Program-made: the position numbers and the translations under genes
The notes under the pieces: model-generated
What the model saw: the letters and a program-made list of their open reading frames with translations, nothing else
Told to the model about the DNA's origin: nothing
The model's database searches: none
Shown: piece after piece, positions 12,350 to 61,580 of the stretch
Layout: each line of letters begins with the position of its first letter
Numbering within the stretch: the first letter of the stretch is position 1
Origin: Cenococcum geophilum
Taxonomy: Eukaryota
Assembly: GCA_050273025.1 (NCBI GenBank)
Contig: CP158635.1
Span: 2,356,001-2,420,000, forward strand
DNA: 64,000 nt
Direction: 5' to 3'

Positions 12350-12609
12350 ACGGCCTACCCAAACAATAACCACCCAAGGTACTCCACACGTCCGCGATAC
12401 AGATATATCAACAAAATAGCCTTATTAATCTTATATAGCTGCTAAGTTTTATCCTTTCTATAAATTTTAGTTTTTATATAGAGTATAAAAGGCTATTTTT
12501 TAAGTTTAAATATCTAGCACTTAATATTATAGTAGCTATTCTAGTATTTTTAGAGTGGCTATTATAGATCTATATAGGTTTTATATATATTATCTAGCAT
12601 TTAATAAAG

Positions 12610-13400: not shown

Positions 13401-14375
13401 GGTATATAACGGTACCCTCTATATTACGATCTATACCCTTTAATTAAGCCTATTTTGTTGTAATATTACAATAATCTAACTTTTGCCAATATTGTTAAGT
13501 ATCTATTACTAATATCAGTATAAGCAGATTTTAATTTATCGGATTTAACCTTTGCTTACTATAAGTTTAGCTATTAAATCTATTATATAACGATTAAAAT
13601 TCATTAAAATTACCTATAAATCTTACTCTCTATACTTAATTCTATCTTATTTATTATAGTAAGATATTAAAATCTTATAAGGTAACGCTGTTATGGCTTT
13701 ACTAATTATAAGCGCTAGAAAATACACGCCTACTACCAAAAATACCTCGGTCTACTATAATTAGAGATTACTTACTACGTAAGCAACTTCCTTTATCACA
13801 ATATTAATTAATCCTTAATATTAGAAATACTAAGCGATAAATTCTAACAGCTTAATTAAGCTAAATTATAATAAGGGTAAAGTATATAAGAGCAAAAGAA
13901 AGTTGCCAGACATCCTCTTTTAGAGGAGGCTCTCTTTAAGTAGCACTAACGCCTATAAAACTATCGAATTTCTATTACTGGCGACCTTATATATGCTGCC
14001 GCTACTTAATTATAGTAATAAATACTTATATTGGCTATGACAATTAAGCTAAAGTAGTTACTTAGCTGGTTAGAAGGCTTTAAATCTTATAATGGTATTT
14101 ATAAGAGAAAGTAGCATAGTAAGGCTGCCTTAGCTAATATAGATAGAGTATAAAATTGCATAGTAGAGCTTTAAGTAATTACTAAGCCTTATTTACTAAA
14201 GGATATTTGCAATATAGATAAGACGGGGCTATTTTAGAAGGCTATACTAGATACTATATTGGGTACTAAAGCTCTATTAAGAATAAAGAAGTAAAAGGTA
14301 TAAATCTCTTTAAGCAATTGCTCTAATATAGATAGATTAGATAAGCTTCCTCTTCTTATAATTAGCTTATTACTA

Positions 14376-14801
14376 ACGTAGTCGGTAAGCAAGTGGGCCA
14401 TGCAAGCATCCGGGCCACCGTAAAACCCCACCAAAAAACCCAAAAATCGGTCTTTAATATCTTAACAACGGCTTAATAATAAATTATAAAATTTTATAAT
14501 TAGACTCTTATACTTACTTTAAGACCTTTATTAGAGTTTTAGAGTAATTACTTAAGCCATTATTAATATATTAAGATTTAGCTCTTAAATCTAAGCCAAA
14601 TTATTATATCTTAAGAACCACTTATTAAATTACTTTAAAACTTTAATATAGGTCTTAAGGTAAGTATGAGAGTCTAATTATAAAATTTTATAATTTATTA
14701 TTAAGCCGTTGTTAAGATATTAAAGACCGATTTTTGGGTTTTTTAGTAGGGTTTTGCGGTGGCCCGGATGCTTATATAGCCTACTTACTTACCGACTACG
14801 T
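14376..14801. mobile_element. Fot1/pogo-type MITE (426 bp) with long TIRs
   Basis: acgtagtcggtaag...cttaccgactacgt termini; inverted arms of about 150 bp; flanked by TA at 14374-14375 and 14802-14803. Confidence 0.92.
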
Positions 14802-14889
14802 TAAAGATATATTACTTTTTACGTAATTAAATTAATATAGCCTTAATAAATATTATATAAAGGTATAATAAAAAGGCCTAGATAATAAT

Positions 14890-26700: not shown

Positions 26701-29700
26701 TTTCGGCTACCCGTCAGCCGAAAAGCTATATAGAGTCCTTAAACGCTCTAAACACGACAACGTCGACAGGAAGGCAGTTAATTACCTAACTAAATACTGC
26801 TCCTTTTGCCAGAAATACGGACATTCCCTAGGCCAATTCAAGTTCACCCTTCATAAGGACCTTAACTTTAACCACTTAGTATACGTAGACATTATATACA
26901 TTAACGGCAGCCCAGTATTATATATAATTAATAAGGCAACCCGCTACTAAGCCGCCCGTTAGTTGCAAAATATATCCGCAAAGTATACTTAGGATATTTT
27001 ACGGACCTGCTGGATTAACACGTATATTAGACCTCCTGAGTATATTACCCACAACGCCGGTAGGAACTTCATCAGCAAGGAATTCCAGCAGTATGCTACG
27101 GCCATGGCTATATTAACAAAAACTATTCCAGTTAAGGCGTATTAGTCTGTTAGGCTTATTAAGCGAGCTTACCTAGCTCTATAAAGAGCTTATTAGATTA
27201 TTACGGACGAGTATAAGGACATCTAAAAGGAACTGGCTTTACAGATGGCCGTAAAAGCCGTTAACGATACCGCTGGCCCTAACAGACTAGTACCCACTCT
27301 CTTGGTTTACGGAGCCTATTTAAGGATAAGCAACCTAGGCCCCCCTACCCCGTCTATTACGGAACGAGCAGCTATAATACAGAAGGTAATGGCCGAAATA
27401 GTTAAATTACGGGCTAAATAAACTGTTAATAACGCCTTATACTACCGTAACGGACCTAATACAACCTTAGTACACAACCTCCCGCTTAACTCTAAAGTCC
27501 TTATATAGCATAAAAGCGGCAGCTAGAATGGACCCTATCGCCTACTAGCCGTAGAAAATAAAACGTGCTGCGTATAGCTTCCTAGCGGGCCAACTAGCTT
27601 TAGAAGCACGTTCGTAAAACCCTACTTTTAATCCAAAAACACCCATAACGTCAAACTAGACGAACCGGAAGTACCCGCCGAACTAAATAAACTGGAAGTA
27701 CCCCCACCTACCTTAGAAGTCCCCTAGGAACTCACTAAACCCGCTAAACCTACTATAAAGCGTAGCCAAGGACGCCCCCGAAAGTATCCTATAACTAAAA
27801 ACCCCATAATAAAGAATTACCTAACCTCCGCAGGTATATCCGCAAGACAATCTCTACCTATAGATATATTAGTCCTAGTATAGGAAACCCCTTTTACGGA
27901 CTTATAGCGTAAAGAGATTAATGGACTACTTAAAAAGGGCGTCTTTGCGGTTATAATAGAAAAAGATGTTCCGCAAGGCGTCCGTATATTTAACTTACGC
28001 TTTATTAACAAGATTAAGCACCCTAGTACTAATAAAGCTTTTAAGAAATTAAGGCTCGTTATACAAGCTTATAATGACTAGGGAAAGGACCTAGTCCTTA
28101 CGCAATCGCCTATAATTTAACAAGTCAGTTAACGGATTATACTTATACTTATGCCTAAACTACAGCAAACTAAACCTATAGCCCTCTACTTACGGGACAT
28201 CTCACAAGCCTACGTGCAGTCGAATACCTACCTAAGTAGGGACATCTTTATACGACTACCCCGTAAGCTTAACCTATAACTAGGAACAATTTTATAGATT
28301 ATAAAACCTCTTTATAGGGTACTAGAAGCTAAAAACCACTGGTTTAAGATATACCACTAGCACCACGTTAGTAAACTCAAAATGGAATAGTCGACCTACG
28401 ACCCCTGCCTCCTATACAGCCCATTAAACGGCCTTGGTATTGTTGGACTCTAAATAGATAATACCCTATTTCTAGCAAACCAGACCTTTACGGATGCTAA
28501 AGAAACTAAACTATAAAAGGCCAAGTTCTTGGCAAAGCCGTAAGAGTAGTTAACTAAGTAGAATCCGATTAAGTTTAATAGAGGCCTAATTATATAAAAG
28601 GGCAACCTAATTAAGCTAACTTAGGAACGCCAAGCTTAAAACCTAAAGCCCGTTATAGTAAAGCCTATGGACCTTACTAGCTCCCATAGAGAGACCCATA
28701 AGACCGTAAATATAAAGGACTAATACATTGCATAGCGTGTAAGAGGCGCCTATATTGCCATAGTCTATTAACCCAAATCTGCCTATAATTTGTCCTTTAC
28801 GGCCCAGGTAGTAGATCCGCAAGAAGAAAATATTAAGCAGCTTAATAAGCGCATTTAGTGGCAAATTAACAATGCAGTAAGGGGACTTACTTTTATACCA
28901 CTAGACCTAAGTTCCCTTAGCTTACTGGTATTTACGGACGCCTCCTTTACTAATAATAGGGACCTATCATCATAAATTGGCTTCGTAATTATACTTACGG
29001 ACCGTAATTAGGACGTAAATATACTATATTAGTCTTTAATTAAGTGCAAACGAGTAACCCGCAGTGTACTAGCCTCTAAACTATATGCACTAGCTTATGG
29101 CTTTAATATAGCAGCCGCAATTAAATTAACGGTCTAGAAGATTCTATAACTAGAGCAGTTACCCCTAGTTTTATACACCGATTTAAAGTCCCTCTACAAC
29201 TACCTAGTTAAACTAGGTACGACATAAGAGAAGAGGCTTATAGTCGACCTAATGTGCTTACATTAGGCCTATAAACAACGTGAAATTGCGGAGGTTAAAT
29301 AGATCAGCGGCGGAAACAACCTAATAGACGCTATAACTAAGGCAAAGCCGTATTAAGCCCTTAAAACCCTAATTAATATAAACAAGCTTAACCTAAAAGT
29401 TATAAAATAGGTAGAACGGGACTAACGAAGTACCTATAGTACGCCTACGGCCCGTTAGAAGGCCGTACGGCTTATTATACGGCCTATTCTACGGACCGTA
29501 AGCTATCAGGTAGAAAATAGTGGAAAGCTGCGATAAAACTTAATGGACTCACGTGACCTACTAAATTCTGCTATATTCTGCCACAGTAGTCAAATCTACT
29601 AATTACGATTTTCCATGCCAGGCATAGAAAATCGCTATTGGCTTGCTTAGTACTAGCGTCTTAGCGGCCCTTAAGATCTAACTTATAGCTCGTCTACTAC

Positions 29701-30474
29701 CCGTTAAAAGGCCGTACGGTTCATTTTACGGACTGTAAGCAGGACTTACGGCCAGCTTAGGGCACCGTTTAGAAGGCAGCCTAGAAGGCACCTCGGGAGG
29801 AGTTTCCTATGTATTTTCTTATGTGTTTTATGGTTCTATTAAGGCAATTATAGAGGCTGTACACAAGTAGTTTCATTTTCCAAGTACCGCTAGTATATAA
29901 TTATAGCACCTGGTATATAAACGCGTAAATACGCGTTCGTGCACCAACCACCTACGTGCTGACTAATTAGGGGGGAGGCGCGTTAGTATATAGACCACGT
30001 AATCTACCTCAATAGAATCGACAGTTACCACTATCCCAAAGAGCATACAATACTATATGTATTTCGTGCCCCGGGATACGACTCACTTGTGCTATTAAGT
30101 TAGTACGAACACGCACCTTAATATCTCTATAACTACTTAATAATAAATTCTAATATTTTAGATTTAGGCTTTTATATATACTTTATAGCCGCTATTATAG
30201 TTATATAGTATATAGTTTAGTAGTTATTAAGATATAGCAATTTAGCATTATTTAGAAGCTAAAATAAAGTTAAATTGCTATATCTTAAAAACTACTAAAC
30301 TATATACTATATAACTGGAATAGCGGCTATAAAGTGTATATAAAAGCCTAAATCTAAAACATTAGAATTCATTATTAAATAGTTATTAAGATATTAAGGT
30401 GCGACTTTTCTAATTTTTAGTAAGTTTTAAGGTGGCCGGCTTGCTTAAGTAGCCGACTTACCTATAGAGTACGT
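23794..30474. mobile_element. Second Fot1/pogo-type MITE (~434 bp), split by the Copia insertion
   Basis: acgtactttataag...ctatagagtacgt termini, TA-flanked; pieces 23794-23869 and 30117-30474; long inverted arms. Confidence 0.88.
23870..30111 (+). mobile_element. Full-length Ty1/Copia retrotransposon, probably GalEa clade
   Basis: 218-bp LTRs at 23870-24087 and 29894-30111 with 10 differences, all transitions; TSD cgcac. Domain order gag (ATG 24467), protease IDTGAS ~26252, integrase LHRRFGHP ~26690, RT KSRLVVQAYND ~28045 and QTDD ~28450, RNase H FTDASF ~28930 and NPxDAMTK ~29318. Confidence 0.95.
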
Positions 30475-34792: not shown

Positions 34793-37014
34793 AAGCTCGG
34801 ACCCCTAGAACTCAGTCGCCTCCTAAACTTAATTACTACACCAAAATTAACTCTCCAACTTGCGGACCTATTTTCTCTATAACGAGCTGATCAATATAGA
34901 CCAAACTAAGTAGAATTTATAAATAGTTATTATAGATTTTAAATCTGGTTCTTATAAGTTTGCGTAAAAAGCAATGCTTATATATAGTATCCCTTTATTA
35001 ATTTTAAGCGATCAATTAGATGGCAAGTTACTATAATAATTTATACACTAGTATAAATAGTAATTAACTCCTATATAGGGGGCCTTGCTTTTTAATTAGG
35101 TACTTAAACAGAACCTATAAAGATTTAGCCCCTTATATATAATTATAAAAAAATAGTAATCCAAATCTTTAATTAAAATAGCAATACTAAGCCCCTTAGA
35201 AAAATTTAGGTAATTAGCTATTTTAGATAGAATTTTTAGATTAATTTTTTATTTACTTAATTAATAGAAAGTGTATAAGTTAGTTAGGCACGACTATCCC
35301 TTAACTCGTTAGGGTCCTTTAAGAATTCTCCACTGGATTTAATTAGCCACCTATATTAAACCGGGTTATCTAATTAGCTAGTCCCTTATTAATAACTGTA
35401 AGACCCAAATTAATGGGTTGAGGGATAGTAAATTTAAAAATTCTGTAACCTTTATAAAAAGGTATATAGGAAAGTTAATATATTATTAGAATATGTCTAA
35501 AATATATATTAATTTAGAGTTATATTAAGTATATATATAAACTTAATTACTACAGTAAATGCCTTTAAAAGATTTTTTTTTATATTATTACTAAATAATT
35601 ATAAATAGGTGTTTATTATAGAGATAATATTTACTCTAAATTAATTGGTTAATTTCCTTATATATTATGTTATAATATTTAATTACTCTATTGCAGCTCC
35701 CGTTAGGGTCTATATAACGGGTCTATATAGGTATATATATATATATATATAAGAGAGAAACCGTATAGCTAGGGCTAGATATAACCTCTCCTTCTCTTAT
35801 TATATAGCCTATATAGCCTCTCTTCTAATTAGTAACTACTAAGCATAAGTAGATATCTTTTTAAGGCACTATAGAAAAGCTATCTTAATGCGTACTCCTA
35901 GGTCTATCTAGTAGGGTATATAGCTAAGGCTTAGGTTCCGTTTCTAGCTGTTTTGGTTATCTAGGTAGGGTATAGGCTAGTAGCCTATAAGGCTAGTAGT
36001 GGTATAAAAGGTTCCGTTGTCTATATCTACGTTAATATATACAGCTCTATAACTTGCTAAGTTTTACTAAGTTCTACTAAGATATTAACTTCTACTAAAT
36101 TCTACTAGGTTACTAAATTCTGCCAAATTCTACTAGGTTGCCAACGTTCTACTAATTCTATTAGGTTATTAAAAACCTTTACCGTATATGCAACCTTACT
36201 AAAAGGTGGCGCCGCACTTTAAAACTTACACATACCCATCTTCCTATTAAAAGCAATTGATTTTTAGACTCTTAAGACCTAATTCCTACTACCTAGCAAG
36301 CTAGAGGCGGATTCATTTACCTTTTTACACCCTTTTTACCTAAGAGAAAATTCTTTTAAGGGGTGGTTTTAGCTTGTAAGCGAGGCAGGGATAGGAATAC
36401 CAAAACATTAAAACATAGACTTTTCCTAGGTTTTTCTTCTATAAAAAGTAAAAGCCTAATAAAATAGGAGGTGTAGGTATTTTTCTATATCTCCTTTAGT
36501 TAGATTTTCTTTAGTAAGAGAAGGATTGCCTTTTCGGGCTTTTTTGCTAGTAAAAGCCTAACAAGTCCTTTTTTCTAGTAGTTTTTTCTACTTCTAATAG
36601 AGAAGAAAATAACTACTATAGTCTTTTTACCCAGTTTTTCTACTACCTTTTAGTCTAATTTCCCCAGAAACTCTCTAGTAGGGTTAGTAAGGAAAAAGGA
36701 TATAGAAGGATAGTAAAAACTAGGAAGGCTTTTTACCTAGTTTTTTACCTCTATGCTAGGAGATAAGAGACCTAAGGAGGTTATTATCTACTGCAAAAAC
36801 TAGGAACCCCCCCCCCTATAAGCTATAAGCTATAAGCTATAAGCTATAAGACACGAAATGCTAAAGGTAAAGGCTACTAAGCCTAAAATAAAGCCTCCTA
36901 TAGAGATAAGCGATGACGAATTCTTATCTACCTCTTCTACTTGTTCTTCTCTATCTTCCCTATACCTATCTAGAAAAGATAAAGAAGTAAAAGAAGTAGA
37001 TAAGCCGTCTCTAG

Positions 37015-40000
37015 TGTTACGGACGCTTTAAGTACAATATTATAACTACTTGGAGAAGAGACGGAAGAAGCTAGTTGGTTAATACAGGCACGGTCTAGGA
37101 TAGAGCCAATAGAACTATGTGACGAGGAATGGTAACCAAGGTCATATAATATAATCTGTATAATCTGTGTAATCTATAGGATCTATAACAGATTAGATAA
37201 AGTATACGTACATTACGTACAAGAAGGATTTCATAGGAGTACGGTTGTGTATTTAAGGACCCTTAGTCCCTACCTAGATAGTTCCTTCCTTATAGTAATT
37301 CTCAGAATATAATTAGAGTTAATTTATTAGGTAACCACTCCACCAGTTATTATTACGTTGTTAACTTTTATACTTGCATTTCCTACACACCTAGCCCAAT
37401 AACGAGCCTATCGTAGTTCTTGCTATAAGGTTTCGTTATATAATTACTACCTAGTTACGGTATTAATATAAGAAGTCAAACAATATGCCACCAAAAGCAG
37501 CCACCATAATGCCATTAACGGCAGTAACTACTTTAGGGACAGGAGGTGATATTAGTATAGCAGATACTAACTTACAGCAACCTATGACGGTTGGATAGCT
37601 ATAGGAGATAGTTAACTAGCTAATAGCTAACAATATAGTATTGGAAGAAAGACTTAACGGGATAGGAGCAGTAAAGATTAAGCTACTATTAATTAAGAGA
37701 TTTATAGGAGAGAGGTTAAAGCTTAAAGGATTCCTTACGCAGATGCACTTTAAGGTCTTATAGGAGGGAGTAAAGTTACCTATACCTGTGGATTGGATAG
37801 CCTACGCAGGACTATTCTTGTTAGGAAAAGCACTTAAGTGGTTTAAACCTTACCTTACGGAGATACAGGTAAACGGAATAACGACCACTAACTAAGACGT
37901 TTGATTTATGTTCTTAAGTTAGGAAGGATTTACAGAGTGACTTACGCAGATGTTTGGAGACCTAAAAGAAACAACTACAGCGGAAAGAAAACTCCAGAAC
38001 CTTATATAACGAACTTTAGTAATTAAGTATATAATATAGTTCTAGATACTAGCAATATAAGTAAAGTAGAATAATAGGGCGCTTATGGCATAGTACAAAC
38101 AGGGACTTAAGGCTAAAGTTTAGGACGTAATTATCCTAATAGAAGATGCGGACACCCTAAGGGAACTAATAGATTAGGCGATTAAGATTAATAATTGGAT
38201 CTACTAAAGGGAATAGGCTAATAGAGGCTAGAATAAAGTTCTATAGTTATATAAGGCGCAGAGTACGCAATAATAAAAGCTAAGTTAGAAACTATGGTAT
38301 AGCGCAAAGCTAATAGACCTAAGTGGTACTAAAGAAGCCTATAAGAGATAGAGCAAACTATAAAAACCCAGAGGATAAGGATTAAGTAATTAAAGGTCTA
38401 AGGAGCAGAGGCCAAATCAGGGATCTTAACAGCAGAAGATATTCAGGCGGACTTTATAGCAAGAGAAATAGTTTAAAAAAGGAGCTTGCATAAATTGCGG
38501 AAAATAGGGTTATTACGTTAGAGACTATAGAAGTAGGCAGAGTTACTATATAGTAAAAGGTATAAGACTAGTAGACGATATATACGTACAGAGGGATAAT
38601 AATATGCTGTAAGGAACAAAAAAATGTTTAATTAGAAGTTTTGCGTTTTGTTATAATAACGTATACCAAATTTATAAGGACGCTAAGTACGGCGCAAGCT
38701 ATTGGCTATAGGAGCTAGCACTTATAAAATATAGAGAAACCAACGAACTAGTTTGTAGATCGGATATTAAGAACGATAAATTTAACCTAGGCGAAATATT
38801 CTATAATAATAAGGCAATAAGGGCCGCTTATTAAAAGCGAGTAAACCTTAGAGATGTTATACTAGAGGTAGAGGATAATTCCACTACAGAATAGGGAATA
38901 TTAGTAGGGATTAAAACCCCACTAGATACGATGTCTATCGCTTTATAAGACGTAAGAGAAGTAGAATAGCAAACCACTTCGGCACTTAATAAAGGCAAAA
39001 GGCTAAAGACTTAAGATTCTTAAGACGAGATAAGAGACGACTAAGATTCTTAAGAAGAGATAAGGCATACCTAAGGACCTATAACGGACGAAAACCGATA
39101 GAGCAGGGCAATAGCTTAGTTTAGAAACATACAAATAAGCTTAGGATAGAGTTTCCCATAGGCACAAGACTCTTAAGATAAGATAAGTGAGATTTAAGAC
39201 TCTTAAGACAAGATAAGAACACTATAAACGCCTAGTTAGACTAAGGCGGGAGCTAAGCTTAAGTTAGAAGCAAGCTTAGGATTAAAGAATCTAAGGAACT
39301 AAGATTTCGGAGTACAAATAAGGACACCTATAGGTAAGAGGTAAGGAGCTTCTTTACAGATTAGAGAATCTGTAATATAAATAGCAGTTAGATTAAGAGA
39401 CAGATATATAAACCTAAAAGACTTACTAGGGGAACGCAGTGTTTAGCCTAAAGATTAAAAGTTTAATACTAGGATTAAAAAGCAAGACAACTTTAAGGAT
39501 TAGGGCGTAAGGCGTAAACCAAAAGAAACTATAAAAGAGTTTAGACAAAGAATTATCGCATAGCAAGAACAGAAACTAGATAAGAGATTTAGTATATTAG
39601 GACGTATAAAGGATAGAGCACTAGTATAAAGAATCACTAATAGGTTAAGAGTAGGTATACTAAGAGCTAAGTGACTTACCGAACTGGAAAATAAAGAGGA
39701 TTTAGGGATTTTAACTAGGTTTAAGGAATAATATATAAAGGGCTGTCATAATACAGTAATAAGAAGATACTTCCTTATGGATAAGCCGTATATACTCTAG
39801 TAGCTATACCAAAAGTAGTATAGGCAAAGGCATAATGATAAGTAGGAAGATTTCTATATATAGTTAGATAAAAAAGTTATCTAGGACCACCTAATTATAG
39901 AAAAGGCCATAACGTATATTAAAGGAGCCTTAATTATAATATTAAAGGATCTAGAGGAACGTTTAAAGGACTAGAGAAGTAAAAGACGCATCTTAGTACC

Positions 40001-43000
40001 TATAAATAAAGTTATAATATTTAAATTAGCACAATAAAGGTTTAAACTTAGGGATAAAGATAAGCTAAGAGTTAACCTAAAGCACCTAGCATACTATACG
40101 TTATTATAGATTGCGTATATAGACGATATATATAACATATATAAGAATCCAAAGGAAAAGAATTAGAAATATCCTATAAGGATATACTGGATAACGGACG
40201 AGTAATAGTATAGGAATGCTAAATATATATATAGATGGCATCTAGCAGAGGTTTAAGAAAAAGGAAGTTTAGTATTTTAACCAGAAAGATTCCTTATAGA
40301 AAAATACTTAGACGGATGACAGTGGTGGGAATGCCTAGAAAACACGTGTTTATAGTATATTAAAGATAAAAAGCGATCTAGGCATTGGCTAAAGAATAAG
40401 CCAAGTATATTAGGATTAAGCAGCTAATAGTTAGGAAAAGTAGAGGCCTATAGGACTAGAGGGAGCTAGTGGTAGAGCCTTAGACCTTTAAAGGAATTTA
40501 AGAATAATACCTAAATTTATGAATTAATTGGTAAGATTAGCAGTTTAAAGCGCTAATAGATAGTAGAGCAACGCAAAACTATATCTTACTAGTAGTAGTT
40601 AAAAGAATAGGACTACCTTATAGATAAAAGGAGTAACCTTACCTATTAGTTATAATTTTAGGAGATCTAATAACCTATAGGGGAGGGATTATTAATCTTA
40701 AAATAGGACCTATTTAGATAACTATTAAAGGGAGATAAATTAAGATGTCTTTTAATATCCTACTATTGGGACGGGATAAGGTAGTATTAGGCATACCTTA
40801 ATTATAGGAATATAATCTAAGGATTAATTAGATTATAGGTTAGGTTAATATTAAAAATACTTAATGCCGTAAAATATAATAATAAGCTAAGTTGGTATAG
40901 TACTAAGTAGGAGCAACCTATAAAGAAATAGAAAAAGAACTAAGTTATATACTAAAGAGATACTATAAGTATAGCAAAAAACTATAGTTACTAGAAAGTA
41001 AAAAGCTGTTAGAATATATAGTATAGGACTATAAGATAGAGTTAGAACTAGGAATAAGTTTAAAGTTCTTTCTAATCTATAAGCTTATTAAAAAAGAAGG
41101 TAGAGCGTTAAAAGAGTTTATTTAGGAAAATTTATAAAAGGGATATATTAGACCATCGCAGTTATTAGCGGGTTATCCAGTACTATTTATACTAAAGAAA
41201 AATGGTAAACTAAGGCTGTATATTAACTATAGATAGTTAAATAGTATTACTAAGAAGGATAGGTATCCTTTACCCTTAATTAGCGAAATCTAAGATAGAA
41301 TAGGTAATGCGTAAATCTTTATAAAGATAAATCTAAGATGGGCGTACTATTAGATTAGGATTAAGGAAGGCAATAAATAAAAGGCAGCCTTTAGGTTAAA
41401 GGAAGGACTATATAAACTATTAGTTATATAATTTGGGCTTATAAACGCACTAGCAACGTTCTAAAAGCGTATTAATAATATATTAAGAGAATACTTAGAT
41501 GAATTTATTATGGTATATCTTAATAATATTATTATCTACTTAATAATAGAGGAAGAATACGGAGAATACATTAAATAGGTTTTAAAGAGACTATAAGAAG
41601 AATAGATGCTAGTAGTAATTAAGAAATACGAGTTCTTTACTAGGAAGACCGATTTTATTAGATTTATTATTAAACTAGGCCAACTTAGTATAGATCTAAA
41701 GAAGATTAAGGCTATAGTAAATTAGTAGAAACTAGAAAACGTTATATAGTTAAGATTATTTTTAGGGTTTTGTAATTACTATAGAAGGTTTATAGCGTAG
41801 TGGTTAAAGAATATTAAGCTATTTACGCGGTTAATAAAGAAAGAAGAACTATAGGTATAAGGAGAGGAATAAAAAGAACTCTTTAAAAAAGTTAAAAAGA
41901 TATTTACCTAAGAGCTAGTTCTTAAGATCTATTAACTAGGACTAGAGACGGTTATAGAAATAGATGTATTAGACTATATACTAGGGGTATACTTTATATA
42001 AAGGTATTAAGATGGATAGCACCTAGTAGTATACTATAGTCGGAAAATAACACCGCTAGAGTTAAACTATAACATCTATAATAAGGAGTTATTAGGTATA
42101 GTTATAGTATTAAAGGAATAGAGAGCATTCTTATAAGGCATAGAGAAACTATTTATAGTTAAGACGGATTATAAAAACTTAATAGAATTCCTAATAACAA
42201 AGGAACTTAACTAAAGATAGGTTAAATAGGTAGAGATACTTACAGAATACCATTTTAAGATTTAGTATACTAAAGGTATAAATAATACGCGGGCAGATGC
42301 TCTAAGCCGTAAAGCTAAATTATAAAATAAGGAAAAGCTATCGGGGGCTTTATTGCGAAAAGATATAGACAGATTAATTAGGTATAATTATCCAAAAATT
42401 ATAGCAACTTAAGAAGATAGTAAACTAGAGAAAGTTCTATAAAATACCGGAAAGCTTTTAGGTATAAAGAATTCTAGAAGTATAGCTAGAAGATCTACAA
42501 ACGGATATATACAAAAAATTAAGAAGTAAAGTATATCCTAAGAAGTATAGCAGAGCAGTTTATAGAAGACTTCTATAAGGGACTAACTTAAGGATATAAT
42601 AGAGCTACGAGCTTAGTGTTAAGACTTTAAGAGGAGTATATTATTAACGGAATCTAAAGGATAGCTAGAAAAGTTATAAAGAAATATCTAGACTACTAAA
42701 GGAATAAACTAATAAGGCATAAGCTATATAGAGGGCTATAACCTATTAAAATACTAGAGAGACTATAGAAGGTTATATTATAGGACTTTATTATTAAGTT
42801 GCTAAAATTAAAAAATCCTATTATCGGATAAGATTATAACGCGATCTTAGTAATAGTGGATAAGCTTATAAAGTGGGGATACTTTATAGCATATATAGAA
42901 GAAATCTTAGCAAAAGATGTCGCTAAAATCTATATTAAGGAAGTATTCGTAAAATATAGAGCACTAAGTAAGATTATATTAGATAAAGATCTAAGATTTA

Positions 43001-44990
43001 TAGCAGCATTCTAGGAAGTATTCTTAGTAAAGTAGGGGGTTTAAGTAGTAACTTCTACTGTATATTATCTATAGACAGACGGTTAAACAGAAAGATTAAA
43101 TTAGATACTAGAGCAGTACCTAAGGCATTATATTAATTATACATAGAACAATTGGGTATTGCTATTATTAGTTACATAATTTATATATAATGTAATACCT
43201 TAAGAAGGGATAGGCATATTACTATTTAAGGCAAATTACGGATATAAGCTAAGGATATTATTATTACTATAGCAAATAAAGAAAACGAGTAGTACAGCTA
43301 AAGAAAGAATAAAGACGTTAATAAATCTTTATATAGACCTTATAGAATTAGTAAAGAAAGTATAAGAGAGAATAAAAAAGTACTATAATGCGAAGAGATC
43401 TAAGGGACTAGATCTTAAGGAGGAAGATAAAGTATGGCTACTACACAAAAATTTTAAGAGTTAATAACTAAGCAAGAAGTTGGACTATATTAAACTAGGA
43501 CCTTTTAAAATTACATAGAGGATTTTATTAATTACGTTTAAGCTAGACCTACTAGCTAAAATAAAGATCTACCCTATATAGCATATCGCAATGCTAGAGC
43601 CAGTATATAGGAATATTAAGCCACCGGTTTATAAAGTAGACATATATAGAGGATAAGAAGAAGACGAATAGTAAGTTTTAAAGATCGTTAGTTATAAGGA
43701 CATTAACGACGAAATATAGTATAAGGTTAAGTGGATAGGCTACACTAAAACTACCTAGGAGCTACTAAAGAATTTAAAGAATGCTATAAAAAAGGTATAG
43801 GAGTATTAAAAGAGATTAGGTTAGATAGTATTAATAAAGAAGAATTACTAAAGAACGAGTTACCTAAGGGGGACCTAAGAAGAGCAGTTACTAAACTACT
43901 TAGATCTATTTCCTTCTCTATTAGAAGAGAATCCATTCTTTTATTACCTAGTTTCTATAAACCTTATTCTATAAGTTTCTACTCCTTAAAACAAACCTTC
44001 TTACGCATCTTCTTAAGACGGATTAGCCAAGCGGACGCCGCTAAATAAGACTTAAGAGCCCGTTGCTAAGTATCGGCAGCCTCCTGTTTAGCGTCCCAAG
44101 ATCGGCGCAATTTAGCAAGAGTAACAGATAGTTTATTATCTAGCCGTATAGCAGCAGATTAAATATAAAACCCTAAGATAAATTAATTAGGGAACCAGAC
44201 GACTATTAAGAGTAATAGGTCGCGTATATTTAGTATTAGAAGTAGAGCGAACGTCACAGGACGAATAAATATTCGCTTTAGTACACTTTAAGTAAGAGAA
44301 CGGTTATCGCGAAGATAGGTTCGCCAACGCAATATAAACCAACCCCTTTTTTAAATAACGAGAATATAGAGACGGTATAATCTTACTAAGAGACAATATC
44401 GCAGCAATAGTACGAGCACAACGAGCAGTTAAGGAAGAAGAAATTGCTTTAGGTATAATAAGCAATAATATTAACCAAATTAATTAGACGGATATTATAC
44501 CTCTAATAAACAACTTAAAGATATTTTAAATCTTCAAGGACAAAGATAAAGAGGAGGGAGATGGTGTTACAGACGCTTTAAGTATGATATTATAACTACT
44601 TAGAGAAGAGACGGAAGAAGCTAGTTAGTTAATATAGGCACGGTCTAGAATGAAGCCGATAGAACTATATAACAAGGAATGGTAACCAAGGTTATATAAT
44701 GTAATCTATATAATCTATATAATCTATAGGATCTATAACAGATTAAATAGAACACACGTATATTACGTATAAGAAGGATTTTATAGGAGTACGGTTGTGT
44801 ATTTAAGGACCCTTAGTCCCTACCTAGATAGTTCCTTTCTTATAGTGATTCTCAGAATACAATTAGAGTTAATCTATTAGGCAACTACTCCACCAGTTAT
44901 TATTACGTTGTTGACTTTTATACTTGCATTTCCTACACACCTAGCCCAATAACGAGCCCATCGTAGTTCTTGCTACAAGGTTCCGTTATA
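37015..44990 (+). mobile_element. Full-length Ty3/Gypsy chromovirus (Gypsy-2)
   Basis: 426-bp LTRs at 37015-37440 and 44565-44990; TSD tctag/tttag; gag ATG 37485; CCHC knuckle 38487-38528; protease LIDSGA ~40553; RT YLDD ~41516; RNase H ~41960; integrase ~42570-43300; chromodomain ~43660-43800; PPT 44548-44564. Confidence 0.95.
43900..44456 (-). pseudogene. Antisense accessory gene of Gypsy-2: Zn2Cys6-like cluster plus helical tail, one intron
   Basis: De-RIPed C-x2-C-x6-C-x13-C-x2-C-x8-C; splicing a 55-nt intron (44227-44173) restores the frame through a split Trp codon. Confidence 0.65.
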
Positions 44991-52673: not shown

Positions 52674-55600
52674 TATAAGGGGATCTTATAGACAGGGGGC
52701 TATAAGGACATAATTAGAATAGGATAAATTGGTAAGAGAGACAAATCCTTAAAAAGGTAAGACCTCTAAAATCGTGGAGACTATATACTATAGGCACGTG
52801 CCTTTGGCACGTGACCGGCAACCATCTAAGGGGCGTCCGGGGGTTATCCTAAGGGCAACCTAAGGTGTCCGCAATAATATCCCTTACATTGCCCCCCCCC
52901 TTCTTACGGTTAGCCCCCGATCGCCATTACCTTACAGTAGGGAGATTATAAGGGCTCGTCCTGGAAGAGGTTCGGAGAGATATTAAAGAGGTGTCGGCAT
53001 ACCGCTGTATATCATCTATCTATCTAACCCCTGCTTTGAACTCCTAAAAAACCTTAATAAAGAAAAAACATAACTAGAGAAAAGACGCGAGGATTGCTAG
53101 GAAACCTATCGGAAGCCTACCGGAAGCATGCCGGTAACTACCTAGGCTAATATAGGGATTTTTATATAACTCTGCTTTTAAGCCTTTATGCCGGTCTACA
53201 ATCAATCATAAATATTATAGGCAATTTAGTATTCCAGTATAGTTCCGTAAAACCTTTAGTATGGGATTTGACGTACGAAGCCTTGGCTTGCCGTCGTCTT
53301 TAACTGCTAAAATATAGTCTATAATCTTTTCTCATAATCCCCTACGTTACTAACGCATTGCTTCCGCATTTGCCCTTAGGTTATTAGATACGGTTAAGGT
53401 ATTAATCAGTTAGTTAAAGAGACTTATCTCTTAAGATTTGGTGCATGTGGTTTCAAATCTAGTAATCCTATGCTGTATATTTGGCGTAGCTCTACTACCT
53501 AGCAAATAGGGACATTTCGCGATAGCAATTGTAGCTATTATACAATTATCAAGAACGTCTATAACGTTATTCTTTAATACTATGGTATCGTTTTAGGCCT
53601 AATTTTACCCATATGCGTCTTTAATTTAACGTCTTAATTGCCTTCCCCCGGCCGCGTAGTTAGTTTTTATAAGGAGGTAATAGTTAAATAACTTATACGC
53701 GTGTTTCCTTCCTTCTAAATAGCGCTATTGTAACGGAGTTATATCGGTAAGGTTGCGGCTATTCACTAGAAGGGTATTAAAAGGTAAAGTATAAAGACAC
53801 CTTACTCATCGAGCTGCTCCTTTTCTTAAACACCTCACTTCTCGCCATTAACCGTCGTCCAATTTTAGACGTATCTTCAATATATTATTAAGATTTTCTT
53901 CTTTTTTATCAATAATTTAATATACCTCTTCGTTCTCCTACTAACTACTCTTCTAAGCAAATTCTATAGCGTATCCTAGCCCTACCTTTACATATAGAAC
54001 CCTAACCCCCACTAACTCGCAACTAGTACTAGTCCTGCCTAAATGATTTTACCTATACGTCTTTAAAAGACCAGAAATCTAATAATAGGATTCTAGAGGC
54101 TTATAATAAGACGCACTGTATTAGATCTAATACCTTCAGTCCTTATAATTAATGCATGCGTACTAAGAGCGGCAGTTGCGTTAAGGTGAGTTTTTCTATC
54201 CTTAATAGATTTCCATTGCTGACTTTAAGCTTTAATAATAGCCTGGGCCTAAGTGGCGACGTTCCTTTAATATCCTTAACTACTACATCGCCCGAGCTCT
54301 CTCTCATTCCAACGTAAATGCTAAACAACTTAGCCAAATTTAAGACTATACCACGGCCATCTATACTACCCATAATTCCTAGCAAGCCAGCTAGCAACGC
54401 CTAATGCGAGAGCAAGGTTAGTATACTAAGGATAGGGTAAGGGATGGGGGTAATAAGAAGAAGGTTGCCGTCTACTATAAGAAGGAGTTTGCGTATACAC
54501 GTTAAGTTTTAAAAGAGCATAACATAATACAGTATGAGGTAGGTTACCCTTCGGGTACCTAGCGGATAGGTAACTAACGGTTACCGTAGTAAGGTCTCAG
54601 TAGTTCTGGACTATGCCAGCCAGCTAACGTCTCTATTTATTCTAGGCTTGAGTGTGTTTTTATTAACTATAAGCTTACGCCGCAAGAGCTTCGTTGGTAT
54701 TGGTTTAGACCTAATATTAGTGTTAAGCATTTAAGAGTCTCTGCTCTAGCTACACCTTATCGTCCTGCCCCTGTTTTTATGCCTACTTATACGCCTACTA
54801 AGGCATCTGGATCCTATTCTCGTCAGCCATCACTTAGTGGCCCGATGGATACTAATCCTACTCCTAATAATAATAGGGCGTAGTGGCTTTTCAGATTGGG
54901 CATTTATGGTTTAGACTTTTGGGATTTGTTCTTGTATATAGTAGCAATTAAGGACCTTAATTAGGTATTTAGGAAGGCCTCGGAAGGCTTTTGGGAAGGG
55001 CTTAAGAGCCCTAGGAATAATATTCCTAGTATAGATTAATGAATGGGAATGCAATTCTAGTAAAATGCCCTATTAACTTTATGCTATATACGTGAAAAGG
55101 CTAAGGACCCGTCCTACCTTAGGCTATATAGCCCTAATCCTTATGGTTTCTGGAGCTTGTCCGTTCTATATCCGATTTAACCTATTTACTCTTTTCGCAA
55201 GCTTTCTTTATAGGTCGCGATAATACTATAGTATTAGAGCGCTTTCTACGATTTGTAGATTATAGACCTTGGTCCTAATATTCTTTTAGAATATCTTTAT
55301 AATAATTAAGGTGATCCTCTAGTTTCTATATAGAGTCCTTAGTAGGCCAGCCTAGCTATTTAACTTCAAATTAAAGCTTGTTCTTAACAGACTTATAGCG
55401 TAGTATAGCTTTAACCTCGTACCGCTCGCCTACTACCTTAGGGTGTTTAATTAGGCCTAGACGGAAGTTCTTTTCCGGCGGTGGTCTATGCTATAGCTCT
55501 AGTAGGTTTATATAAAACACTAGATATATATAGGCCATAGATAGGGGTAGCTGGAGACGATAGGCTAGCTTGCTAATTTGTTCCTTAACTTAGAAGGGAC

Positions 55601-58600
55601 CTAGGTATCTTATATTAAGCTTCTTTAATAGTTAACGGGTCTTAATATTTGTTAAACGTAATAGAATCTTATCGCCTACTCCGAAATGCTTGTCCTAGTG
55701 CTTGTAGTTGTACCAAAGTCTCTACTACTCTTGGGTATCTTATAGGCTCTGCTTTGCATGCTTCTATTACTCCTCCCATTCTTAGAGGTATCCTTATACT
55801 CTTCGGTAGATGTCTTTAAACTTCCCGGTAGGATTCTATAACTAATTATACGGCCTTAGCCAGTAATTGTTAGGTATACTATTAAACCTAAATAGTCGGA
55901 CGCCATAGGCAATCTAGATTAGTGCATACTTATACAATATATATTGCTTTGAATTATAAGCGTACTCCGCGTACGGAAGTAGCTCGCACTAGTTGTTTTG
56001 CTAGTAGTTTAAATATATCTATAGGTAAGACTCTAGTTCCTAGTTCTGGCGTTCCGTTTACCCATCTATCTATAAATAGAAAGCTATACTATAATAGTGG
56101 TCTATCTTTAAATAGAAGCATAGATCCGACTAGTACTAGCTTATAAAGACGCTGCCCCTATTAGTAATAATAGAGTGCAGCTAATCTACTTTAAGAAAGC
56201 ATTTCTCCTTAATTAGGTTGGTAAGCTCTTATGCGTTAATCGTCTTGTTAACGGAAAGGTATTGGACGTACTTTAAAAACCTATTAATAAGTATAAGGAC
56301 CAAATCGTATATTCGTCCTTAGCCATCTTTAGATAGCGGGAGATCCGTAATAAAGTCTATGGCGTAATGTCGCCATAGCTTACTAGCGGGGGGAACTGAT
56401 TTAAGTAGACCCTATGGCTTATACCTACGGATCTTATATACTTAACACTTCTTACAATAGCTAATGTACTCCTTTGCTTCCTAATTAAGCCTTAACCAAT
56501 AGTATTTGCGCTAAAGTAATTCTACTGTCTTTGCTTAACTATAGTGGCCGCCTAAAGGATCATCGTGATTCTTTATAAGAATCTTCTGTCGTAGATTTGC
56601 TTCTTATAGCACCTAAACCTTACCACCTCTATATAGTAGGCCCATTGGGTTTAGTTCCCAATGGTAGCACCTAGCAGCTTCCTTTCTATTACGTTTCCGG
56701 TCTACTTCCGTATTAAGAATGGCATAGGAAGCATCCCTCTGTTATACCTCACGGATGAGATCCGTTAACTCTTTGGATAGTTCCTAGGTAAAAGCTATTT
56801 TATCCCATACTGCTCTAAGTATAAGACTAAATAGTACCATAGATCTTATAACTCTTTAATGCGCGTGCGTTAGGAAGGCCGCTACGAGGTTAAAGTCCTT
56901 TAGTTGTTATAGGGCTCCGAGTTTTAATTGCTCTATAGCTTCGCTATTGGTTTAAGGGGATAGCTTAGCAATTAGGGATAGTATATTACTAGGTTCCGAG
57001 AATGTATTAGGGACGTCCTATCTAGGTATATTTAGACCCTTATTAGTAACGGACCGGGTACTAGCTAGAACGTTAGTGGAAACCAATAGGGCTTATACCG
57101 CCTAAGACTCGGTGTATAAAGCTATAGGTGCTTAAGTATCCCACACCTAGAGCTTGTTCTATAATATAGGGAGTAAGATATCTATTATCTGTTTTCCTTC
57201 TCCCGTTTTAAAGCCTTTAGTATAGTCTGGCCGTCGTAACGGTCCATTAGTAGGGTTGTTTTCCCCTAGCTTGTATTTAATCTTAAAATCAAATCGCGTA
57301 AGCTCCTCTACCTATCTAGCTTATTAAGGTATAAGCTCCTTTATAGTTATAAAGTAGTGTAAATTATAGTGATCTAAGAGTATACAAGTGGTATAGCTCG
57401 CGTGCTTAAGGTAATATCGCCACTATTTAAAGCAGTTGACTATAGCTAGTAGTTCCTTGTCATAGGTATAATACCTAACTTTAGGTCCCTAGAATTTTCT
57501 GCTATAAAATACTACTGGTCTCTAATGGAGCTGGGTAGCGTCTGGATGCCTATTGGGTTATAGTAGGATACCAGCAAGGGCAAAATTCGATACATTAGTA
57601 ATTATTATTAATGGCTAATCTGGGTTAAAATGCCGCAGCAATAGAGCTTCCGTAAACTTTACGCGAAGTTCCTAAAAGGCCTCCTAAACCTTTCCGGGCT
57701 ATAACTATAGCTTATACTATTTAGTTAGTTCCTTTTTAGTTTTCTTCCTTACCACCTTTAAGCTTTTTGCTCCTTAGGTTAGGTCTTAGGAAGCTTCTAT
57801 AATATAATTGGATAGGTATCGGGTGACGTCTAAGTAGTCATAGATAAAGCGCCTATAGAAATTGGTAAAGCCTAGGAATACTTAAATATCCTAGTAGCTC
57901 TCTAGCTCCGGCCACTCCTAGATTATCTACACCCGTACTAAGTCTATAACTATACCTATAGGCGTTATAATATAACCTAGGAACTCAACCTGCTTAGTGT
58001 TAAAGATATACTTTAACGCTTTAGCGTAGAGGCCCTAATTATCTAAACGTTCTAGCACTTCGCGGACGTGTTGCTTATATTAATCCTTATCTTCTAAGTA
58101 GATTAAGATGTTATCTAAATAGATGACGTATATGCGGTTGACTAGTCCCCCTAAGGCTCTATAAATATACAATTAGAATGTCGTAGGCGTATTGGCTAGC
58201 CCGAAAGGTATTACTAGATACTTAAAGTGGCCGTATTGGGTCTTAAAAGCGGTCTTCTACTTATCCCCTTCTTTAATACGGAGCCTATAATAGGCGTCTT
58301 ATAAATCCAACTTTATAAAGATCTTTACCCTAAATAGTTAATCCAGCATTTTACTAACTAGTAGTAGTGGGTAACGGTTCTTAATTGTAATCTTATTAAG
58401 ACCGCGATAGTCTATATATAGCCTTATAGTTCTATCTAGTTTTAAGATAAAGAGGATTAGCGCGCCTAACGGCGACTTACTAGGCCGGATCCATCCCTTT
58501 TCTAATAAGCCATTAAGGTACTCCTATAGGATCTCAAGCTCTTTACGCAAGAGGTTATAGATAGGAAGGTTCGGCGGTTATTTACCTTCTTCTAGATTAA

Positions 58601-61580
58601 TTACGTAATTATACTCCGAGTTCTGCGGTAGGACTTTAGCTCTCCTACCCGAAAATACCCTTAGTAAGTCCCTTAGGCCTACTAGAATATTTAATAAATC
58701 GGGGTCGCGTTTATCCTCCGCGTTATTATTGGGTAGGTCCCGGAGCTCCCTTGGGATGCTTATAGGTAGCGTCGTGCGTTATAGTGGTTGCTTGTATATA
58801 GTTGCCACCGTATATTAAACCGTTTTATGCGGTAGCTAATAGAGGGTAAGGAACTCCTTAACGCAGCGTTTAAGGTGCTGTAGTATACTCTCCGTATATT
58901 GCTTAAGCTAGAGTAACCTATGGCGGTTAAAGTATCTTATAAGATCCTTAAGATCGCCGCCTCCCTATAATGTCTCCGTGACCTATCTAGTAGTTCCCTA
59001 TAGGGTCTCCGTTATAGAGGGGTTATTACCTATACTAAGCTCTATACCCATCTTGCTATTAAATAGGGGTTGGATCTAATACTCCTTTGGGTGTAGAGCG
59101 TATACTATTTTACCTAGGGCTACATTCTCTAGGATGTCCTTTAGGCTTATTAGTAATATACGCCCTTCCGAATCTTTATTGTTCTACTATTTAAAGGCTC
59201 CTGTCTTAAAGCGTATCTTAGAATCTACTTCCGTAAGCCAAGGGTATCTAAGGATAAGGTTATAACCTACAAAGTTAGCTGCCTAGAAGGGTTGTAGGCT
59301 GACCGCCTTAGTGCGGTTATATATATCGGCTACTAATACTATAAGCTTATAGGCACTGTGTAGCTTAATCCGATGCTTATCTAGGAAGCCTATAATAGGT
59401 TTCCGCTACCTTTACGATAGGATAAGTTTATACTCTTTTACCAAATCATATTATATAAGATTGATTTTGGCGCCGCTGTTATATAGTGCTTAGAACTATT
59501 ATACCTTACCTATAGGGAGTATTATTTCTAGCTTAATAGCAATATAAAGAGTCTCTCCTTCTATATCTTGCCCTAGTTGTAGCTAGGAGAGGTCCGCGAC
59601 TAGGGCTTTTCTTTTTTTGGATTATTAGTGCGGTTATTACCCTACTTATTTTTCCAATAAGATCTACCTCTAAAGTTTTCTCTTAACTTCTTAAAGTATT
59701 CCCGTAAAGGTGCCGGACGGGTATTAGGTTGGCCCTAGGAGTCTTTTCTGTTATTTAAGGTTTCTAACTTTAACCCTTCTAAAGTTCTTTTTAAGAACGG
59801 CTTCTTTAAAGGTTAGGTCTGCCCTATATTACTACTAAAGTGCCTATGCTTCTAGTAACCCCCCAGCTTTCTACCAGAAGAGGTCTAGTTCCTTACCGCG
59901 TCTTTAGCGTTTAGAACTACTCATTTAAAATCCGTATATATAATAATCCGCGATAGGGCTCCCACGCGCTTTATTTCGTCACAAATTGCTAGCTTAATTC
60001 TAGCCCAGATAAACCCAATCTTCTCCTTTACATAGATGCTACCGTCCTTATTTTTAAAGGGCTCTAGATCTATCTATTAAGTATAAGTTTCTATAAAGTT
60101 TATAAACTGGCGGAAGTTATAGCGGTCTAGCTATATCCCATTCCAGAATAGCTCTGCATTATTATATTATACAACATATAGATCTTAAGTCCATTTCTTT
60201 AGAAAGGTTTGCAGCTATAGCTATATAGTAATTTACTCTTTATTAAGCTGATTAAGTACGATCTAGTTTAGTGATTGGTCTTTAATCTTACTAATAATCC
60301 AGCATATACGCTCTTTAGTATTATCTCATATCATTAGCATTTTAAAGAAGTTGTCTACCTCACGAACCCAATCGTCCAACTATTAGGCGTTAGGTCTATA
60401 GCGGAGTTCTAGACTACTAAAGGCCTTAGCCAGTCAGTCTATATCCTTTTTCTATTTATAGCGTAGATAACTCTCTAAGTCTTCTATATTTCCTTAGGTA
60501 GGTACTAAGTAACTTCTAGGAAGCCCTTAGCCTTAACTAGGTTATAAAAGAATTTACCTAGCTTAGATTAGACCCTACCAGATCTAGATTTGCCCTTAGA
60601 GGGTTCTAATATGTTTATTAGTAGCTTCCTCCCATATGGCTTCTGAGAGCCTTGCGACAGCTTCCTAATATCCGTCTTAAAGGAGATTAGTATAAGGCTC
60701 TTAACCTTCCAAACTCAGGCCTAGGGAGGCTCCTACTATAGAGGTAGTATTAATACTAGTAGCTAGTGTAGGCTTCCTAACGAGGCTCGGGTCCTAAGTT
60801 AGTAATTAGCTTAAATTACCTAAAGGGGTAGGCCCGCTTAGCTCGTGAGCAGTCTATATACCGCCACTATACTAATTATAGGCCGGTGGTCTTCCGGGAG
60901 GGTTCCGGTTGGTTCCCTAGTTAAATATATTAGTATATTCCTCTAGCATTTCTAGCTCAAGGGAAGATCTTAAAGTTGCCTCTGGCGCTTAATCTTCTAA
61001 TTGGCCTAGGTAAGGCTAAAGGGGTTCCAGTTACTTTCTAGCAGCGTTATGATCGTCATAGAGGGTGTCTACGTTTTCCTTAGCGGTAACTATAGGTATA
61101 CAAGAGTCTTCGAGCTCCTGGAGCATCTAGGTATTAAGGCTCGTTCAGCCGTCTTGCCTAAAGGGTTATATTATCGCAATCTCTTGCTATCAGAGGGACC
61201 TTCCTGCCTTTACGCGACGGCTTTCCATAAAGTATCCGTGGGGTTTCCGTTTAGGTCATCACAAGATTTTTAAGAGAGGATAGTAGTTATAAACAAAAGA
61301 TATAGATAAATAATCTGGTCCTTAGAGCTAACTACCCTTTTAAAAAAGAGTAAAAAGGATTTGAATATAAGGGGATCTTATAGATAGGGGGCTATAAGAA
61401 CACAATTAGAATAGAATAGATTAGTAAGAGAGACAAATCCTTAAAAAGGTAAGACCTCTAGGATTGTGGAGACTATATACTACGGGTATGTGCCTCCGGC
61501 ACGTGACCGGCGACTATCTAAGGGGCGTCCGGGGGTTGTCCTAAGGGCAACCCAAAGTATCCGCAATAATATCCCTTATA
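52674..61580 (-). mobile_element. Full-length Ty3/Gypsy chromovirus (Gypsy-4) with a long 3' region
   Basis: 215-bp LTRs at 52674-52888 and 61366-61580; TSD agtag at 52669-52673 and 61581-61585; protease DSGA ~59475; RT YLDD ~58115; RNase H TDASNFA ~57590; integrase HDDPLGGH ~56555; chromodomain ~55270-55430; PPT ~52891-52903. Confidence 0.95.
53922..54420 (+). pseudogene. Antisense accessory gene of Gypsy-4: six-cysteine cluster plus helical tail, with intron
   Basis: De-RIPed C-x2-C-x26-C-x8-C-x2-C-x7-C with 4 Cys codons intact; intact GTGAGT donor at 54186, GCTGAC branch site 54218-54223, in-frame AG acceptors at 54229 and 54241. Confidence 0.65.

Follow-up and report, generated by a model that had tools for sequence, protein, structure and literature searches.

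A predicted three-exon, six-cysteine gene lies antisense between pol and the 3′ long terminal repeat of a mutated Ty3/Gypsy retrotransposon of Cenococcum geophilum

RESULTS

A three-exon frame antisense to a Ty3/Gypsy element

We analyzed a window of 64,000 nt from Cenococcum geophilum (contig CP158635.1, positions 2,356,001 to 2,420,000; coordinates below count from its first nucleotide), all of which is fungal repeat DNA damaged by repeat-induced point mutation (RIP), with a GC content of 25–43% and a TpA/ApT ratio of 1.4–2.3. The minus strand of this window carries a full-length chromoviral Ty3/Gypsy retrotransposon bounded by long terminal repeats (LTRs). On the plus strand, antisense to the element and between its pol and 3′ LTR, sequence comparison identifies a three-exon gene for a product of about 284 amino acids, which is a real gene but is dead in the window copy (Table 1). 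A six-cysteine frame at this place had been proposed in an earlier note on the same DNA, and we confirmed it as a plus-strand frame (53922–54185) inside the minus-strand element.

The host element shows the hallmarks of Ty3/Gypsy retrotransposons, namely LTRs with a target-site duplication (TSD) and a polypurine tract, and a pol ordered as reverse transcriptase (RT), RNase H, and integrase. Specifically, its two LTRs are 90% identical, the element is flanked by a 5-bp TSD (AGTAG), and pol, which lies ~2.3 kb from the 3′ LTR, matches RVT_1, RT_RNaseH, Integrase_H2C2, and SH3_Tf2-1 in Pfam. A chromodomain at the C-terminus of the integrase gave a weak match in this RIP-damaged sequence (PF00385; E-value 0.008, 16.5 bits against a cut-off of 25.1), and a Pfam search with the gag-like frame gave no match. 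Each LTR also carries a repeated CACGTG-type box beside CCGG/CGG motifs (52797–52822 and 61484–61509), a possible factor-binding site judging by its letters.

The element family is very abundant. Summed read depth over positions 53850–54950, which is not the same as copy number, was mostly tens of thousands to 190,000 in one DNA run and thousands in a second, compared with ~100 and ~7, respectively, for the listed contigs. Across the gene region, 30 of 30 bins were covered at high depth in both runs. In the 28 copies that retain both LTRs, comparison of the pairs over 4,048 sites gave 382 transitions and 4 transversions; with so few transversions, the insertions must be young and nearly all of their decay must be due to RIP.

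Table 1. Features of the retrotransposon and of the predicted antisense gene (window coordinates)
Feature	Position	Strand	Description	Basis
Ty3/Gypsy element	52674..61580	−	Chromoviral LTR retrotransposon, full-length, 8.9 kb, RIP-damaged	LTR pair, TSD, Pfam pol domains
3′ LTR	52674..52888	−	215 nt; polypurine tract directly inside at ~52890–52906	
Upstream region of the gene	52889..53921	+	Non-coding; presumed to hold promoter and 5′ untranslated region; pyrimidine-rich tract just 5′ of the start	
Exon 1	53922..54185	+	88 codons; Pro-rich N-terminus, then C-x2-C-x26-C-x8-C-x2-C-x7-C	
Exon 1 Cys codons	54027, 54036, 54117, 54144, 54153, 54177	+	Cys1 to Cys6	
Intron 1	54186..54241	+	Phase 0; 56 nt in the window copy; GTRAGY ... 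CTRAC ... TAG	
Exon 2	54242..54538	+	99 codons; basic (20 Lys/Arg within the first 98), without Cys	
Intron 2	54539..54589	+	GTAGGT ... CTRAY ... TAG; three near-fixed in-frame stops inside	
Exon 3	54590..54883	+	97 codons and a fixed TAG at 54881; Pro/Ser/Thr/Gly-rich tail	
pol	55200..59600	−	Protease–RT–RNase H–integrase–putative chromodomain; convergent with the antisense gene; 3′ end approximate	
gag-like frame	59600..61100	−		Frame-preserving indels, pN/pS 0.43
5′ LTR	61366..61580	−		

The frame was compared across the best 80 of at least 538 confirmed relatives, which were found among at least 604 stretches in a metagenome scan; together with the window, these give 81 copies. The 80 loci all belong to this element, and each of the 74 with sufficient length extends into the same pol. 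The gene starts with ATG in 37 of the 80 copies, has an A at position −3 and a pyrimidine tract in its 5′ context, and is separated from the 3′ LTR by 1,033 nt. As the earlier note had stated, exon 1 is directly followed by a GTGAGT donor (54186) and a GCTGAC branch site (54218–54223), and the donor GT is present in 79/80 copies. Two in-frame acceptors had been proposed as well. One of them, the TAG at 54239–54241, occurs in 80/80 copies and leads into the frame PGPKWRR, but the other (TTTAAG, 54229) ends in AAG rather than YAG and is deleted in ~20 copies.

Intron 1 measures 46, 47, 52, 53, 55, 56, or 57 nt in the other copies, and intron 2 is 51 nt long in 79 of 79. The suspicion that further exons exist was borne out by exon 3, though the splice site lies at intron 2 and not at ~54418, where the gttagt taken for a second donor proved to code for Gly-Trp, the Trp being present in 42 of 81 copies. 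When the majority sequence was scanned over all 8.9 kb for the donor–branch–acceptor pattern, the plus strand gave three hits, two of which are introns 1 and 2. Within exon 2, each stop in the frame up to 54535 is replaced by Gln, Trp, or Arg in some copies, and the tail of exon 3 is of low complexity, with Pro, Ser, Thr, and Gly making up 46% of its last 52 residues.

The window copy is a pseudogene that has lost its start codon and contains stops throughout. Its start reads ATA, four of its six Cys codons are literal (Cys1 is TAC and Cys4 is TAT), and it has 15 stops, of which 5 fall in exon 1 and 10 in the frame 54242–54883 (intron-2 and terminal stops counted). No intact copy was found among the 76 that span the gene, in which the number of stops has a minimum of 5 and a median of 16.

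The six-cysteine motif across copies

The six Cys codons are kept to very different degrees among the 80 copies (47 for Cys1, 27 for Cys2, 51 for Cys3, 1 for Cys4, 67 for Cys5, and 48 for Cys6), and nearly all remaining codons at these sites are TAY, the RIP product, the exceptions being one CAC and one CGC. A single copy of the 81, L070, has all six cysteines; it also has the ATG and both introns. The earlier note had read QCQSC around the first pair, but the codon after Cys1 is TGG in 37/80 copies and CAG in 0/80, so that the motif becomes C-W-S-C. It had also named beforehand the loss of Cys spacing or splice signals in related elements as grounds for giving up the gene; both the spacing and the signals of intron 1 persist from copy to copy and between subfamilies.

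On its own, a six-cysteine pattern is weak evidence because it recurs in the window, and the case is carried by the copy comparison. RIP-tolerant patterns with any number of literal cysteines occur 62 times in the window, and those with at least four literal cysteines occur 3 times in its six frames, the other two being ORF1 zinc knuckles of long interspersed nuclear elements (LINEs; see below).

Evidence of coding and purifying selection

No codon of the gene frame (0/283) reads as a stop in at least 90% of the copies, compared with 53/1,226 codons in the six frames of the flanks. In pol, 26 of 1,444 codons are such stops (4 of them in all copies), and the other frames of pol have 53–92. Indel events shared by at least two copies were likewise counted, with the proviso that alignment jitter inflates the counts in variable parts. 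Exon 1 has no indel in any copy, exon 2 has no shared event, and exon 3 has five, all of them multiples of three; pol has none, and gag has seven, again all multiples of three. In comparison, we found ten shared events in intron 1 (8 not multiples of three), 58 in the upstream region (54 not), and 22 downstream (15 not).

RIP cannot make transversions, and we analyzed those shared by at least two copies, which are not fully independent of one another owing to subfamily structure. Over the whole gene, 49 synonymous and 10 non-synonymous transversions were counted, corresponding to a per-site ratio of non-synonymous to synonymous changes (pN/pS) of 0.05 (p = 3e-26). The values were 0.15 for exon 1 (8 synonymous, 6 non-synonymous), 0.02 for exon 2 (20 and 2), and 0.03 for exon 3 (21 and 2), compared with 0.20 for pol, 0.43 for gag, 0.7–0.8 for the flanks, 0.79–0.99 for the upstream region (52889–53921) at sharing thresholds of 1–2, and >4 for the shifted plus frames. 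For the antiparallel minus frame, pN/pS is 0.36, and fixed stops are missing from one of the minus frames of exon 2; we read both signals as a likely shadow of the plus-strand frame. From these patterns of change, the gene was almost certainly under purifying selection at least as strong as that on pol while the subfamilies diverged.

Transcript data were sparse. RNA run X21 (~12% read) yielded 5 reads, all less than 90% alike, on both strands and without a joint, and RNA run X22 yielded 2 contigs, which is too little to argue for or against expression.

Relatives of the predicted protein

A phmmer search of 1.84 billion representative proteins returned 11 hits, comprising five family copies, five long proteins, and P0016. 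The long proteins (P0010–P0014, of which P0010 was read) matched in short repeated stretches only and were dropped. P0016 is an undamaged protein from a 3.8-kb Logan contig that is 34% identical to the query over query residues 4–89 (E-value 3e-4); it has all six cysteines, with a spacing of 2-28-8-2-7, and V-S at the donor position. We infer that P0016 may share the intron and sit in a retrotransposon. A search with its residues 24–120 returned only P0016 itself among 3 candidates, and the Atlas feature search gave no usable match for it. The same search with copy L027 gave generic zinc-binding (IBR/RING) leads below 0.9 and one unnamed cluster at 0.91.

When the frame of exons 2 and 3 was searched against proteins, 1 of 57 candidates was confirmed, namely P0005, which is another RIP copy. 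At positions that are Trp in the family, P0005 and P0006 both show Gln, presumably because the gene caller translated RIP-made TAG as Gln; such entries may look intact when they are not. The family alignment matched 0/7,430 proteins of 283–2,000 amino acids (weak evidence), no relatives were found in viral contigs or prokaryote genomes, and a sequence search of the PDB gave two hits at an E-value of 0.3, which is chance level. No canonical Zn2Cys6 host gene was found in 0.98 Mb of loci. A MOSC match on exon 3 was below the cut-off and was rejected. The predicted product contains no signal peptide or membrane span (maximum 19-residue hydropathy, 0.51), and its reading as a secreted effector or env-like protein was rejected for want of a hydrophobic stretch.

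Other features of the window

A different Gypsy element lies on the plus strand at 37014–44863, with a pol ~36% identical over 461 amino acids to that of the element described above. It contains a RIP-damaged antisense six-cysteine exon (44378–44255, minus strand; C-x2-C-x6-C-x13-C-x2-C-x8-C) that has a canonical 6-residue first loop and ends just after Cys6; a stretch resembling an intron and then a coiled-coil-like second exon (~44150–43950) come after it. This canonical-loop exon was seen in 8 copies (the window and the flanks of L010, L014, L035, L040, L057, L062, and L066), with ATG in 4/8 and each of the cysteines in 1–6 of them. A 3′ fragment of a 75%-identical relative of the main element occupies 12591–13373; it comprises the LTR and some of the upstream region and stops short of the antisense gene. 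Tandem arrays of 27-nt and 12-nt units that are comparatively GC-rich and less RIP-damaged lie beside this truncated LTR (11939–12345).

Cys-rich stretches that fit the six-cysteine pattern and are followed by endonuclease-like frames occur at ~10120 (−), ~22030 (−), and ~46072 (+); we take them to be ORF1 zinc knuckles of three LINE-like elements. A further plus-strand LTR element (23872–30112) has LTRs that are 96% identical and little extra sequence before its 3′ LTR, and its 3′ part presumably encodes a Copia-type RT and RNase H. Finally, two long near-perfect hairpins (14374–14803 and 30112–30403; arms of 210 and 142 nt, loops of 8–10 nt) are 74% related and are probably small non-autonomous DNA elements.

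DISCUSSION

Nature of the six-cysteine module

The GAL4-type Zn(II)2Cys6 motif is given as CysX2CysX6CysX5-16CysX2CysX6-8Cys in the relevant passage of PMC2447501. The predicted module resembles it in arranging six cysteines as two C-x2-C pairs (complete in L070 and P0016), in its Cys3–Cys4 and Cys5–Cys6 spacings (8 and 7, both within the motif ranges), and in being followed by a helical, basic region. Where it departs from the motif, as the earlier note had recognized, is the first loop, which is 26 residues long in all copies (28 in P0016) instead of 6. For the binuclear zinc cluster that the note proposed to check by structure prediction, both AlphaFold2 models were unusable (mean predicted local distance difference test [pLDDT] scores of 45.8 and 40.9) and Pfam gave no match. 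Fold searches with these models, both below 50 pLDDT, were uninformative (best Foldseek E-value, 8.9; best Z, 4.8, to generic helix pairs), and the first-loop insert is modeled, at this low confidence, as a helical hairpin in both. By loop length, Pfam, and the residues after Cys2, the module would fall outside the GAL4-type Zn2Cys6 family, but it may still bind zinc in a similar way, and it probably adopts a divergent version of a binuclear-cluster-like fold whose first loop carries a long insert.

A putative regulator of the element

We consider it reasonably probable that the gene encodes a zinc-binding nuclear regulator that acts on transcription or chromatin of its own element. Such a protein would be soluble and would combine the zinc-binding six-cysteine module with a basic helical middle (exon 2 has basic patches) and a low-complexity Pro/Ser/Thr-rich tail; it would regulate the cycle of the element, most likely via transcription or chromatin at the LTR. 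Because the packaged genomic RNA is transcribed from the opposite strand, splicing does not remove the introns of a gene that faces antisense to it, and such introns survive reverse transcription. By the same orientation, the gene would need a promoter of its own, which would lie in the 1 kb beside the 3′ LTR. A wider proposal, which we regard as doubtful, is that fungal chromoviruses possess a separate lineage of antisense genes, spliced and descended from Zn2Cys6 heads. In the present family, the first-loop insert of 26–28 residues would form a new binding surface, and the product would be an anti-silencing or transactivating factor that enables high copy number despite strong RIP, comparable in fungi to the accessory regulators of retroviruses.

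Several observations weigh against the gene model or the role proposed for its product. The 80 loci were chosen by exon 1, which biases any statement that the gene is present in all copies. The Cys4 site reads TAT in 79/80 copies, and L070 alone is insufficient to establish Cys4 because 30/413 of the non-TA adenine columns in pol also show a lone A-to-G change. Cys does occur at this position in P0016 and in P0008 (a copy at a greater distance, 58%), and G is retained in at most 3% of the copies at 8% of the visible TGT-context sites; going by these comparisons, the ancestral residue was quite probably Cys. P0016 itself lies near the threshold, ranked below the five long repeat-matched proteins, and is known from its protein alone. 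The last codon of exon 2, GAG in the window copy, is a stop in 78/79 other copies (TAG in 75 and TAA in 3, with AAG in the remaining one) and is CAG or TGG in none.

As for DNA binding, GAL4-type clusters have basic, DNA-contacting residues right after Cys2, and the corresponding residues here are not basic (L-N-D-F in the family and L-I-S-L in P0016). Pfam returned no family at E-values up to 10 for P0016, P0006–P0008, L027, or exon 1 of L074. CGG, which would be the self-binding site, is not enriched upstream of the gene (38.7 per kb, compared with 38.6 in pol, 52.0 in gag, and 56.1 in the LTR). Nor did hhalign detect similarity between the long-loop exon and its canonical-loop counterpart in the second Gypsy element (probability, 0.5%), so that only the layout is common to both.

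Alternative explanations

A possible, if rather improbable, alternative is that the accessory protein acts post-transcriptionally by binding element RNA, Gag particles, or a host silencing factor, in the manner of Rev, Vif, or a suppressor of RNA interference, with the cysteines forming a structural zinc module. The long first loop and the absence of basic residues after Cys2 speak against GAL4-type DNA binding and in this sense favor it, as do the generic character of the zinc-binding leads in the Atlas search and the missing self-binding-site signal. However, nothing positive indicates RNA or particle binding, and the canonical loop length in the second Gypsy family of the window fits descent from DNA-binding clusters.

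Unlikely, in our view, is a two-exon gene of 186 amino acids that ends at the TAG at 54536–54538, the downstream frame being a separate unit or translated otherwise. This stop is found in the 78 copies mentioned above, across all subfamilies, and the 51-nt segment behind it is invariant in length. Yet the downstream frame (54590–54880) is itself under selection, as judged by its 21 synonymous versus 2 non-synonymous transversions and its indels in multiples of three only; it has no Met before 54779, and a canonical GTAGGT/CTRAY/TAG intron joins it in frame to exon 2. The three-exon model assumes that the near-fixed stop ahead of donor 2 is a RIP product, and its T-TAG context is that of most near-fixed RIP stops in pol.

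Very unlikely is the idea that the frame is a captured piece of a host transcription factor carried as a passenger without benefit to the element. The introns exclude a gain as sense cDNA, and six-cysteine clusters are typical of fungal transcription-factor heads, so the gene could nonetheless have originated by capture; a neutral passenger, however, is largely refuted by purifying selection among element subfamilies (the pN/pS of 0.05 against 0.20 for pol), and no host homologue appeared among the 1.84 billion representatives or, as weaker evidence, among the proteins of 283–2,000 amino acids. A chance pattern in RIP-damaged non-coding DNA, for which the four literal cysteines of the window copy and the 62 RIP-tolerant patterns of the window might be invoked, deserves virtually no credence: the codon positions at which transversions fall and the spectrum of indels refute it, as do the stop distribution, L070, and the intron scan.

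Significance and comparison with known antisense genes

According to the passages of a review on the subject (PMC7264820), no antisense accessory gene of an LTR retrotransposon has an established function. The gain from the present analysis is an exact three-exon model, selection evidence that is proof against RIP, and a distinctive six-cysteine motif for finding intact relatives. If the predicted protein does regulate or shield its element, it would help explain the expansion of Gypsy elements in fungi with an active genome defence. As the case shows, genes missed by annotation can be hidden in stop-riddled repeat DNA.

A spliced antisense gene near the 3′ LTR is also known from human T-cell leukemia virus type 1 (HTLV-1), whose HBZ encodes a basic leucine zipper (bZIP) protein and is a proposed regulator of its element. 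The parallel with HBZ would be one of analogy only, as the host kingdom differs, a bZIP stands against a Cys-rich protein, and homology is absent. The antisense promoter of HTLV-1 lies in its 3′ LTR, as stated in the passages of PMC7264820. The same passages describe antisense open reading frames (aORFs) of unknown function in plant elements, among them gene23 of maize Grande, which possesses an upstream promoter of its own and encodes a nuclear product, likewise of unknown function; from the nuclear localization of GENE23, the review proposes a regulatory role for antisense genes. Plant aORFs and the gene described here are alike in position, orientation, presence in most copies, and gag/pol-like conservation. 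They belong to plant lineages, however, and these passages describe no six-cysteine motif in them; the likeness is one of layout.

The closest parallel in layout comes from Boty-like elements of Botrytis and Sclerotinia, in which an antisense gene, brtn, has been described (Zhao et al. 2011, PMID 21802103, as cited in passages of PMC8365987, PMC4227169, PMC5987419, and PMC7264820). Like genes of the aORF-3R/brtn kind, the gene in the window is found between pol and the 3′ LTR on the strand opposite gag-pol and is conserved like gag and pol; in both cases, a fungal Gypsy element, here with a putative chromodomain, has an extra antisense gene at this place. The passages on brtn make no mention of a six-cysteine motif or introns, and the words antisense, zinc, and intron do not occur in the passages of a fungal LTR-element survey (PMC3248453). 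No six-cysteine antisense gene of fungal Gypsy elements was found in the literature searched by title and beginning of the abstract, a scope too narrow to show absence from print. The present gene differs from brtn, as the cited passages describe it, in being RIP-dead and in having three exons and a long-loop six-cysteine motif, and the likeness between them is one of position and orientation. Antisense genes at this position are thus already published, and the gene described here would be a variant of them, set apart by its three-exon model and long-loop six-cysteine motif.

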